A stretch of 64,000 bases of DNA from an uncultured delta proteobacterium (GCA_963832165.1 CAWHTE010000007.1:352001-416000); one strand, 5' to 3'. Counted from the first letter of the stretch, positions 46,158-48,080 are shown. Numbers and translations are program-made. Notes: a model not told the origin generated them from the sequence alone.

Positions 46158-47441
46158 ATGCATTCCGCGCCCCAACCCCTCCCCGAGCGATCCGGCGCGT
46201 TCGGCGGCTTCATCGGCCCGCGCACGCTCGTGTCGCTGGTCGAGAGTGCGTTGCCGTGGCTGCTCGCGCCCGCGTTCGCGCAGCGCGCGGGAGTCGCGGC
46301 GCCGAGCGGGGATGGGTCGCTGCACGAGCTCGCCGCGGGTCCGCTCGGCTGGTGGCGCGTGCTGCGCGCAGTGCAAGGAGGCCGACAGAGTCGGCCGACG
46401 CGCAGCGAGCCGGAGGCGAGCGAAGGCGCGCCCCTGCAAGATTGGCTCGCACCGAGCGAAGTGCCCACCCCGGAGCAGCGCACCGACTACTTCGCGCTCT
46501 GCTTGGCCGCGCACTTCGCGAGCGCGGCGAGCTTCGTGCCCACCGACGTCGATACCAAGATCCGCCGCGCGCTCTGGCGCGAGGCCGTGGGCACGCCCGA
46601 GCTCGCGCGCATGCGCGCGCTCGCGCTCGGGCTGTCGGCGTGGGACGTCTCGGCGGTGTCGGCGCGCCAGGTGCAGACTCCCGAGGGCGTCGTCTCGGGC
46701 CACGATGGCGAGCGGCTCTCGGTGCTATGCGGCGGGCTCATCGCATCGCTGCGTGCGCAAGAGAGCGAGGGCGCGGCCGAGCTCGAGGCCGCGATCGAGG
46801 ACGAGCTCGCGCGCGAGGCGCGCGCGTTCGCGGAGCTCGAGCGTGCGCGGGGGTCCGAGCTCGATCTGGTGCGGCTCGCCGGCGTGCTCACGCACAACGC
46901 GGGCGACGTGATGCAGGGTCTCGCGGGCGCGGGAAAGGCGAGCCTGCTCGTGGAGCGCTTCGGCGACCTCGCGCGCACGGGTGTCTCGCGCTACGGCGGG
47001 GCGTTCGGGCGCGCGGCCGCTCTCTACCGCGCGCTGCTCGCGAGCGAGGGCCACCGCAACTACCCGCTGCGCGGGCCGCGCGCGCTCCGGCGCGTTCCCG
47101 AGCTGTTGCTGCCGATCGCGCCGCTGCTCGACGACTGGGGCGAGCGGATCGCGCGCGTGCGCGAGCTCACCGCGCGCGAGCGCGCCGAGATCGTGGAGGC
47201 GCTCGCGCTGGGCTGCACGAAGCTTCCGGGCCAGCAGGGCTACTACCGCGCGCTCGCGGGCTACGCGCGCGCGAGCGCGCGCGGGCTCGAGGCGCCCGAG
47301 ATCGCCGAGCACGTCGCGGCGTCGACGCGCCGCCTGCTGCGCGCGAGCGACCTGCGCCAGAAGATCGCCGTGCCGCGCGCGTCGTTCGAGTCGCAGCTCG
47401 CCAAGCGCGCGCGCTCTCTCCTCGCTACGCGGACTTCTTGA
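46158..47441 (+). CDS. hypothetical protein with an in-frame repeat insertion
   Basis: Long ORF with host-like codon usage; motif-like segments FVPTDVDTKIR, SGHDGE, HNAGD, EGHRNYPLR; family not recognised. Confidence 0.7.
   Translation: MHSAPQPLPERSGAFGGFIGPRTLVSLVESALPWLLAPAFAQRAGVAAPSGDGSLHELAAGPLGWWRVLRAVQGGRQSRPTRSEPEASEGAPLQDWLAPSEVPTPEQRTDYFALCLAAHFASAASFVPTDVDTKIRRALWREAVGTPELARMRALALGLSAWDVSAVSARQVQTPEGVVSGHDGERLSVLCGGLIASLRAQESEGAAELEAAIEDELAREARAFAELERARGSELDLVRLAGVLTHNAGDVMQGLAGAGKASLLVERFGDLARTGVSRYGGAFGRAAALYRALLASEGHRNYPLRGPRALRRVPELLLPIAPLLDDWGERIARVRELTARERAEIVEALALGCTKLPGQQGYYRALAGYARASARGLEAPEIAEHVAASTRRLLRASDLRQKIAVPRASFESQLAKRARSLLATRTS
46373..46438 (+). repeat. dispersed repeat subtype B, in frame
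   Basis: gcaaggaggccgacagagtcggccgacgcgcagcgagccggaggcgagcgaaggcgcgcccctgca. Confidence 0.9.
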
Positions 47442-47991
47442 CGCGCGACGCCTTGAGCCGCGCCTTGCCGTCCTCGATCTGGACGCGGAACGAGAACTCG
47501 GCCGATTCGCCGAACTTGGTGCGCAGCGCGTCGCGCTGCTCGGCGATGATCGACTCGAGCTTCTCGCGCGTGAGGCCGCTCACGCTCTCGCCGCACGTGC
47601 GCCGCGCGTCGACGTAGCTCTGGTAGAGATCGCCGGGGGTGGGCGCTGACACGGGAGGCACGGCCGCCGACTCGCCGGGCGCTTGCTGCTCGTGCAGCCG
47701 GGCCTTGAAGCGGTGCCGCTCGTAGGTACCCGCCTCGATCTTGCGCAACGTCTCGTCCCATTGGCGGCGGTACGCCTGGTAGCGCGAGCAGATGCTCGTG
47801 AACTTGAAGCGCGCCCCGGTGTTCTTGATCGCGGTGCTCGTGAGCTCGATCACGGCCTTGTTGATCTCGCTGCGCAGCTGCACCGGCTCGCGCGGTCGGT
47901 TGCCGAGGAAGTACTGGTCGTAGTCGCGTTTGAGCTGCGCGAGCTTGAACTCGAGCATGCGCAGATCGTCGTCGATCGCCTCGGTGGACAC
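47425..47991 (-). CDS. MXAN_5187 C-terminal domain-like protein
   Basis: LKRDYDQYFLG, RPREP, RFKF, LYQSYVDARR, FRVQIEDGKARLKA. Confidence 0.65.
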   Translation of the reverse strand: MSTEAIDDDLRMLEFKLAQLKRDYDQYFLGNRPREPVQLRSEINKAVIELTSTAIKNTGARFKFTSICSRYQAYRRQWDETLRKIEAGTYERHRFKARLHEQQAPGESAAVPPVSAPTPGDLYQSYVDARRTCGESVSGLTREKLESIIAEQRDALRTKFGESAEFSFRVQIEDGKARLKASRVKKSA

Positions 47992-48015
47992 GCGCGGCTC
48001 TCCCCGGCCATCCCG

Positions 48016-48080
48016 TGCAGGGGCCCGCCTCCGCTCGGCTTCGCCTCGCTGCGCGTCGGCCGACTAGTCGGCCTCCTTGC
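48016..48080 (-). repeat. dispersed repeat subtype B supplying the bioD stop codon
   Basis: Minus strand gcaaggaggccgacTAGtcggccgacgcgcagcgaggcgaagccgagcggaggcgggcccctgca. Confidence 0.9.

Follow-up and report, generated by a model that had tools for sequence, protein, structure and literature searches.

The window analysed here is a 64,000-nucleotide stretch of DNA from an uncultured delta proteobacterium (GCA_963832165.1 CAWHTE010000007.1:352001-416000), and it contains 11 cores of a dispersed GA-rich hairpin repeat, hereafter the element, that is probably a family of selfish mobile DNA, non-autonomous and belonging to one class of Myxococcota (by an inferred name, probably UBA9160). Two copies of the element lie in opposite orientation with ~1.56 kb of ordinary genes between them. 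The first (46373..46445, plus strand) is composed of a GCAA foot, a GA-closed 5' hairpin (46377-46399, loop AGA), a core (46401-46425), a short tail hairpin and a G-rich end, and forms an in-frame insertion of ~23 codons in a conserved hypothetical gene of 427 aa (46158..47441, plus strand), which is itself outside the element. The second (48008..48080, minus strand; core 48053-48029; 5' loop CTAG) is sense to bioD and to the next gene, and the bioD stop codon (48066-48064) sits inside its 5' hairpin loop; both copies are of the type called B below. The intervening gene (47425..47991, minus strand), also outside the element, encodes a protein with a MXAN_5187 C-terminal domain and is syntenic in relatives.

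An earlier note on this DNA had given 46373..48080 as the place of a strand-specific hairpin repeat. The repeats it saw are real, and this interval holds two independent copies: both sites are empty in a congener (G032) that is ~85% identical to the genome of the window (G000, 89% complete) and syntenic at the window locus, so the copies represent separate insertions rather than the ends of one element. A composite transposon bounded by the two was also considered and rejected, since both sites are empty in the congener and the intervening genes are syntenic. The copy at bioD may have formed through short homology, because the empty site in the congener shares the same 8 bases around the bioD stop codon (window 48058-48068).

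Searches of Pfam and NCBIfam with the protein encoded at 46158..47441 gave no match, and 1521 homologues were listed; this conserved protein of ~400 residues has invariant GHD, HN and EGHRNYP motifs, and its gene lies directly downstream of the ATP synthase operon. Among 11 aligned homologues the insertion is absent from 10 and present at the same site in one (P0006), and another (P0018) carries a copy of the element ~20 residues upstream.

Anatomy and covariation of the element

In the window's genome, 182 cores were found with ≤3 mismatches from two archetypes (one in the reversed genome), and a pattern that leaves nine central bases free matched 164 sites (four in the reversed-genome control). 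Nearly all full copies follow one plan, in which a GCAA(G) foot is followed by a 5' hairpin, by GC plus a 25-nt core, and by a tail; the two ends are unlike each other, with no terminal inverted repeats. Type A, with 100 of the 182 copies, has a one-pair 5' hairpin, a pyrimidine loop and a 7-nt tail, for a total of 42 nt, after which come 5-6 loosely G-rich bases. Type B (35/182) combines a GA-closed 5' hairpin of 7-10 bp with either of two tail hairpins, type C (30/182) has G/C 5' hairpin stems of 2-8 bp, and the remaining 17 copies are truncated or of other kinds. This anatomy is unchanged across genomes of the class.

Base identity is conserved across the 25-nt core, in paired and unpaired positions alike, most of them agreeing in 174-182 of the 182 copies, so sequence as well as shape is read here. 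The five central stems named in the earlier note (GCC-GAA-GGC, GCC-GGA-GGC, GGC-GAA-GCC at 43926 and at 48016, and GGC-GGA-GCC) were all found where it placed them. Over the 164 sites, the central 3-bp stem is fully Watson-Crick in 147 and its loop is GNA in 150. The compensatory swap reported in this stem is real, and it concerns the middle pair alone (C-G at 112 and G-C at 45 of the 164 sites); it corresponds to two subtypes, and one event could explain it.

Convincing covariation is located in the 5' hairpin, not in the central stem. For 112 distinct 5' hairpins (at least 9 nt), 590 of 733 scored positions pair, whereas in 2000 arm swaps the paired fraction averages 0.66 and never exceeds 0.70. 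In the 22 copies with a 15-nt 5' module, a set chosen by length alone, 98.9% of cells are paired versus 78.6% when shuffled, and 46 two-sided changes were counted versus 19 when shuffled (0/500 shuffles); these changes fall at five hairpin pairs plus the central pair, and slid registers pair at 25-47%. The pattern supports structural selection on the 5' hairpin. The claim that structure is under selection holds to this extent; as worded, it is not supported for the core, where unpaired positions are conserved too. A tail born by templated fold-back was rejected, as the tail and the CCAT/CCAG motif show no covariation.

The 5' module had been described as a hairpin with a usual GNA loop; the hairpin is there, and C-GNA-G triloops close 48 of the 112 distinct examples, with AGA in the copy at 46373 and CTAG in that at 48080. 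Tetraloops, read by eye, favour GNYA over GNRA by ~9 to 4, and with the C-GNA-G loops they fit DNA mini-hairpins better than RNA. Mini-hairpins of the GCGNAGC/GCGNNAGC kind are, in the available part of PMC13037366, far more stable as DNA than as RNA, nuclease-resistant and poorly bound by SSB, and the sheared-GA fold that we propose for the core is a model built on published DNA chemistry. Nearest-neighbour folding, in models that carry no bonuses for sheared GA pairs or GNA loops and are therefore an unfair test, does not separate the strands: z values for DNA range from -1.9 to +0.7, and the copy at 46373 scores -19.2 kcal/mol on one strand and -18.0 on the other.

Insertion sites, junctions and host range

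The element has inserted at new sites since the species split, leaving lineage-specific copies. When 86 clusters from the congener were examined, 72 could be mapped on the window's genome, where 7 carry an exact core and 65 are without it; all five window sites tested against the congener were empty, and three further empty-site searches returned eight readable sites, six of them empty and two with decayed copies. Simple type A insertions add mostly 39, 42 or 45 nt, and it is because the commonest unit adds 42 nt that the element can be tolerated in protein loops. In-frame insertions absent from orthologues are found across unrelated conserved proteins, namely those of atpG, radA and the 46158 gene, plus 26 mid-gene cases.

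In the ATP synthase gamma gene, a nested composite (43908..44018, plus strand; core 43946-43970) consisting of a type C copy (from 43926) within a type A copy adds 111 nt, or 37 codons, in frame. These 37 residues are absent from 4/4 aligned relatives, and a genome of another family (G050) carries an independent copy of the element in the same gamma loop. Bacterial gamma structures split around the composite site and the alignment with the chloroplast gamma runs through it, 100 residues against 100, the insertion having the same place and length as the extra segment of the chloroplast protein, which we take to be the chloroplast regulatory insertion. A single-sequence AlphaFold model of gamma had a pLDDT of 42.6, too low to be informative. 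RadA gains 14-15 residues from a type A copy in frame in radA/sms (51565..51612, plus strand), made up of the 42-nt unit and a G-rich tail; a second type A copy (51176..51223, plus strand) closely precedes the radA start codon, and both sites are empty in 4/4 aligned congeners. The earlier note was right that the peptide is not the selected thing: 117 of the 182 copies lie outside called genes and 65 inside, and the latter use two frames at 32:24.

Neither a fixed target tetra- or pentanucleotide nor precise ends were found at 50 empty sites, the fall in identity being gradual at either junction. On the left, the match with the empty site weakens across the final few bases and is down to background level at AAG; G precedes AAG at 33/50 sites, GC is present at 18/50 sites vs 49/250 flanks, and C-GNA-G occurs near 14/50 empty sites vs 28/250 flanks. 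On the right, identity is ~0.5 for ~10 nt beyond the 42-mer (15 sites). Target duplications of 2-4 nt were no commoner than the null among 100 type A copies. Insertion often overwrites a few host bases at the element's 3' side: where one copy has inserted in another, a G-rich 5-6-mer usually takes the place of the host loop, and the nested net gain is 42 nt in 11/25 cases and 44 nt in 9/25. Tandem junctions have a period of 42 in 14/23, and neighbours within 250 nt are direct in 39 cases vs inverted in 3. Four sequencing runs that were examined gave no usable empty alleles, and the sequencing-run search returned no run with >0.11 of the element's words and no RNA run among the matches listed. 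Elsewhere in the window's genome, a four-unit array (C1:560500-561050; antisense, with a diverged core) and a single unit (C8:7640-7840) each follow a tRNA gene, a different one in each case, and lie between duplicated tRNA 3' ends.

The exact core occurs in 27 of 44 genomes of the family, with 0-594 copies, and in 77 of 169 genomes of the class, with family-level patterns such as 14/14, 5/5 and 1/55; outside the class it was found in 3 of 323 genomes of the phylum. Named carriers, among the matches listed, are metagenome-assembled genomes (MAGs) of Myxococcota or Deltaproteobacteria, together with MAGs labelled Spirochaetales, whose GC content of 66-76% suggests that they are mislabelled. Viral contigs gave two exact-core loci, one of them in a tailed-phage sequence, and 14 looser matches that are mostly chance in coding DNA, and BLAST searches of plasmids and phages gave only weak partial matches (E 0.01-0.9). 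Intergenic GA/GNA hairpin motifs of the same architecture were seen in four tailed-phage contigs (L227 at 2480-2575, L235, L236 and L237), two of which have 39% GC, with a terminase-like open reading frame nearby in L227 and L237. Rfam returned nothing relevant to the element at gathering or E-value thresholds. A description of the family was not found in the literature searched, which did not include supplements or most subscription papers, so a supplementary repeat table (e.g. that of PMC3733652) could list it.

The other copies of the window have varied settings. A type C copy with a 7-bp 5' hairpin and a GAA loop (53767..53829, plus strand; core 53790-53814) starts at the stop codon of a polyprenyl synthase gene; its site is empty in three genomes (G032, G036 and G033) and holds a copy of the other subtype, at the same junction, in a fourth (G031). 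A nested composite of type A within type C (11661..11763, plus strand) is in frame in a 1216-codon gene, a type A copy (6767..6814, minus strand) forms the 3' end of a glyoxalase-family gene, and a type B copy with a long GA-rich tail hairpin (6664..6760, minus strand; core 6732-6708) ends just before a methyltransferase start codon, each at a site that is empty in G032. Another type A copy (25539..25586, minus strand) lies at a gene's 3' end and supplies its stop codon, with a decayed copy at the same place in G032, and one more (29367..29414, minus strand) directly follows the gyrB stop codon. The window also includes ten 276-bp repeats (57419-60336) that, to judge by their peptides, appear to be tandem HAMP-like domains of a hybrid histidine kinase; the gene is split by the codon-model gene caller, which suggests frameshifts or assembly errors.

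Strand polarity and genome placement

The element is strand-specific, as the earlier note had held. Of the 65 intragenic copies, 61 carry their GA-rich sequence on the coding strand and 4 on the opposite one, and 25 of 26 mid-gene copies are sense; between co-directional genes (n=76), 56 copies are sense vs 20 antisense. A separate, flank-based strand caller returned sense to antisense counts of 97:20 in G000, 59:7 in the 86 clusters of G032 and 26:9 in 83 clusters from other genomes, compared with 404:381 at 1500 random sites. Orientation follows transcription rather than the inferred direction of replication, as copies in genes on the inferred lagging strand are 13:3 sense and those on the leading strand 33:5 (contigs with usable skew). 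There is no excess in convergent gaps (13/284, vs 28/745 for divergent gaps). In low-copy genomes (loci L394, L410, L412, L420 and L393) the few copies often lie just before start codons or beside highly-expressed-looking genes, and their neighbours, named from sequence, include the tuf-secE region, atpD, malate dehydrogenase and a tRNA.

This polarity could have been made after insertion. If a mobile single-stranded DNA (ssDNA) hairpin inserted either way, selection could later remove antisense copies, which would give termination-prone pyrimidine-rich RNA or harmful peptides, and keep sense copies for the stop codon, ribosome-binding site (RBS) or hydrophilic peptide that they would provide. 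The bias is stronger in genes than between them, the basic third frame is avoided (5/61), so peptide-level selection does act, and of the 84 intergenic copies that have a sense gene downstream, 23 end ≤30 nt from its start; in many low-copy genomes, too, the core is 5-25 nt before a start codon. Yet a benign antisense frame exists, stop-free and hydrophilic, and it is hardly used, a single mid-gene copy out of 26 being antisense (p 4e-4 vs a one-third share). In addition, nested copies always match the strand of the host element, as in the direct-repeat excess given above, and 4/4 copies inside the loops of GTAG-REPs share their strand with the GNA loop of the REP, which in two cases is antisense to both neighbouring genes. 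We consider it unlikely that later selection accounts for all of the coding-strand excess.

Replication offers a different source of polarity. The earlier note had raised a PriA-loading role on the basis of a resemblance to ColE1, and a host-useful single-strand initiation (ssi) or primosome assembly site, loading PriA or primase and kept for its function, would predict replication-strand polarity; this was not seen, the orientation following genes and not the inferred replichore. The resemblance itself is a real, short one: 9/10 bases of the core's 5' part, then GAGCGAGGAAGCGG, are found between the ColE1 origin region and rop. The ColE1 primosome/ssi region and mini-hairpin priming sites share short GA-rich motifs and GNA mini-hairpins with the element, mini-hairpins occur in phage and plasmid priming sites (available part of PMC13037366), and similar motifs are intergenic in a few double-stranded DNA phage contigs. 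By contrast, ColE1 and ssi sites are single-copy functional sites with replication polarity, in which ~15 bases resemble the core at a different spacing (best ungapped core match 15/25), whereas the element ranges widely in number among relatives and 10 low-copy genomes revealed no conserved master locus common to genera. A primosome-site role is unlikely, and that the whole family is kept for such a function seems very improbable.

Mobilising enzymes, related repeats and a proposed route of movement

The suggestion that the element is a substrate of an HUH (TnpA-REP) enzyme survives as an analogy. The window's genome has 12 Y1 matches, 11 of which are without an element copy within 3 kb and none of which has the element at its flanks. 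Among them is a single true RAYT (C4:535324-535848; 535459) flanked by GTAG REPs and present in 1 of 44 family genomes (G000 alone). The other 11 (family A1; e.g. L001, L003-L008) are divergent and multicopy, with their own ~40-bp terminal inverted repeats; this family scores below the NCBIfam RAYT cut-off and is found in 38 of 169 class genomes, with ≤23 matches per genome. It is possible, though doubtful, that a resident Y1 HUH transposase, most plausibly of the A1 family, mobilises a REP-like element in trans. A1 is present in 12/17 family genomes with at least 20 element copies vs 1/27 others, and more weakly in 19/55 vs 19/114 across the class (hand-counted; Fisher p 0.011, kin not independent); the GCAA foot is placed where REP guide tetranucleotides sit (available part of PMC8266576), and the loops of the 201 GTAG REP matches in G000 carry the same GA/GNA modules as the element. 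However, A1 is neither necessary nor sufficient across the class: 17 A1 matches occur in G150 and G484, which lack the core, and G084 (100% complete, 108 copies) and G036 (99%, 73 copies) gave no PF01797 candidate, an absence that is not proof, as multicopy transposases can drop out of assemblies.

Other searches in this direction were as follows. An HUH-motif scan returned the known Y1 family alone; a search for IS91 Y2 transposases gave no match, with control genomes equally silent; GIY-YIG gave one match, in a 625-aa frame with no element copy beside it; and genes between nearby copies were by inspection housekeeping or metabolic, with no nuclease seen. A third, MITE-like repeat family of ~165 nt with short terminal inverted repeats was noticed at C11:536788-536937 and ~10 other loci of the same genome, and its 22 ends found lie mostly between convergent genes. 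RNA-mediated copying, retron- or retrotransposition-like, would give the sense bias, and the msDNA-like repeats of Nannocystis exedens offer a myxobacterial precedent (titles cited in the available part of PMC6868368). Against this, RVT_1 has no match in G000 and occurs in 3/17 high-copy vs 7/27 other family genomes, so the element, unlike a retron msDNA-derived repeat, shows no co-occurrence with a reverse transcriptase in the family; its loops are of DNA type with no preference for GNRA or UUCG, and Rfam has no match, all of which makes copying through RNA very unlikely.

The element works like REP or RPE (Rickettsia palindromic elements), as a small structured repeat spread in trans, and by the features that define those families it is not a GTAG/CGTC REP, a REPIN, a transposable element of the miniature inverted-repeat kind (MITE) or an IS200/IS605 derivative. 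RPE and other in-frame repeats are short, structured and found in genes and between them (available parts of PMC3184786 and PMC3733652). Like the element, RPE is lineage-restricted, in frame in conserved proteins and has no dedicated transposase known; unlike RPE, by its description rather than by comparison of sequences, the element is modular and 42-110 nt long, forms an irregular GA-rich hairpin instead of a long palindrome, has strong coding-strand polarity and nests in itself. With REPs and REPINs and their RAYT (TnpA-REP), as described in the available parts of PMC8266576, PMC3116915 and PMC3733652, it shares a fixed motif at the hairpin's 5' foot, ssDNA strand specificity, hundreds of copies and tandem arrays; it differs in having a GCAA(G) foot in all types, not GTAG or CGTC, in forming singlets and direct repeats, not inverted REPIN/BIME doublets (39:3), in having a third of its copies in genes, and in showing no convergent-gap excess and no flanked RAYT. 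Non-autonomous IS200/IS605 derivatives (available parts of PMC5027513 and PMC8266576) are also strand-specific, with hairpin ends and no target duplication, but the element has no fixed target tetra- or pentanucleotide and a loose 3' end that overwrites host bases, and its polarity follows transcription whereas theirs follows the lagging-strand template. Unlike a MITE, it has neither terminal inverted repeats nor target duplication. The SDR repeats of Nostoc (Elhai et al. 2008) are reportedly very small mobile repeats with compensatory structure that insert in genes, and we know of no mobilising enzyme for them; on that description the element is similar, and it is longer, modular and from a different phylum.

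For an element with the mobility, modular anatomy, 5' hairpin covariation, strand bias and lack of target duplication observed here, we somewhat favour movement of a non-autonomous element as folded ssDNA on the non-template strand. In such a route the moving form would be ssDNA: transcription would displace the GA-rich non-template strand, allowing it to fold into GNA-capped, sheared-GA hairpins, an enzyme would read the fixed core plus the GCAA foot, and the piece would be joined into a non-template strand exposed elsewhere, C-GNA-G loops being mildly preferred as targets, its own and those of REPs included. By analogy, HUH-type nick-and-join would be the closest chemistry, and we give it rather less than half of the weight within this reading; the remainder falls to a host protein passed on by vertical descent, since the element keeps to family lines and is tracked by no mobile gene. 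In the form that involves a host protein, which we put forward tentatively, the element may be a very old, class-wide ssDNA parasite that neither encodes an enzyme nor borrows one from a transposon. A conserved host protein would recognise its folded GA core on the displaced non-template strand and insert the piece into the non-template strands of other transcribed regions, replacing a few target bases.

Several points weigh against this route through folded ssDNA. No cognate enzyme was found among the REP-RAYT, the Y1 family flanked by terminal inverted repeats and the reverse transcriptases, none of which tracks the element. The outer pairs of the core and its GA/GCA/GAA loops are near invariant and so provide no covariation evidence, nearest-neighbour folding in models lacking sheared-GA and GNA bonuses does not predict the proposed core fold, and the shuffle used for covariation ignores the kinship of copies. 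At the junctions, the C-GNA-G target enrichment came from a trial of seven motifs, roughly three of the 50 left junctions are uncertain, and some of the fuzziness is plain divergence, as the junctions were read against an 85%-identical relative. The strand counts rely on gene calls from our own codon model (4832 genes, 86% coding) and the leading strands on weak GC skew (0.016-0.029) in unordered contigs; there is also the antisense share between co-directional genes. Finally, selection can explain part of the strand bias, as the antisense strand is pyrimidine-rich and encodes a hydrophobic peptide in one frame, and the tail is RBS-like.

The question addressed by this family is how very small bacterial repeats such as RPE, CGTC REPs and SDR move without a dedicated transposase, and the element provides a handle on it in the form of thousands of class-wide copies, a covarying hairpin beside a fixed core, pairs of empty and filled sites, and a strand rule linked to transcription. 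The family further accounts for spurious-looking peptides that recur in these bacteria and for jumps in the length of their core proteins, and it illustrates repeated natural insertion into permissive loops, that of ATP synthase gamma included. If the host-protein reading is true, the element would represent single-strand transposition coupled to transcription, and no such route is described for REP, RPE or IS200/IS605 elements in the portions of the literature available here. It would then also be a steady source of new loops of 14-37 residues in core enzymes, one of them at the place of the regulatory insertion of chloroplast gamma.

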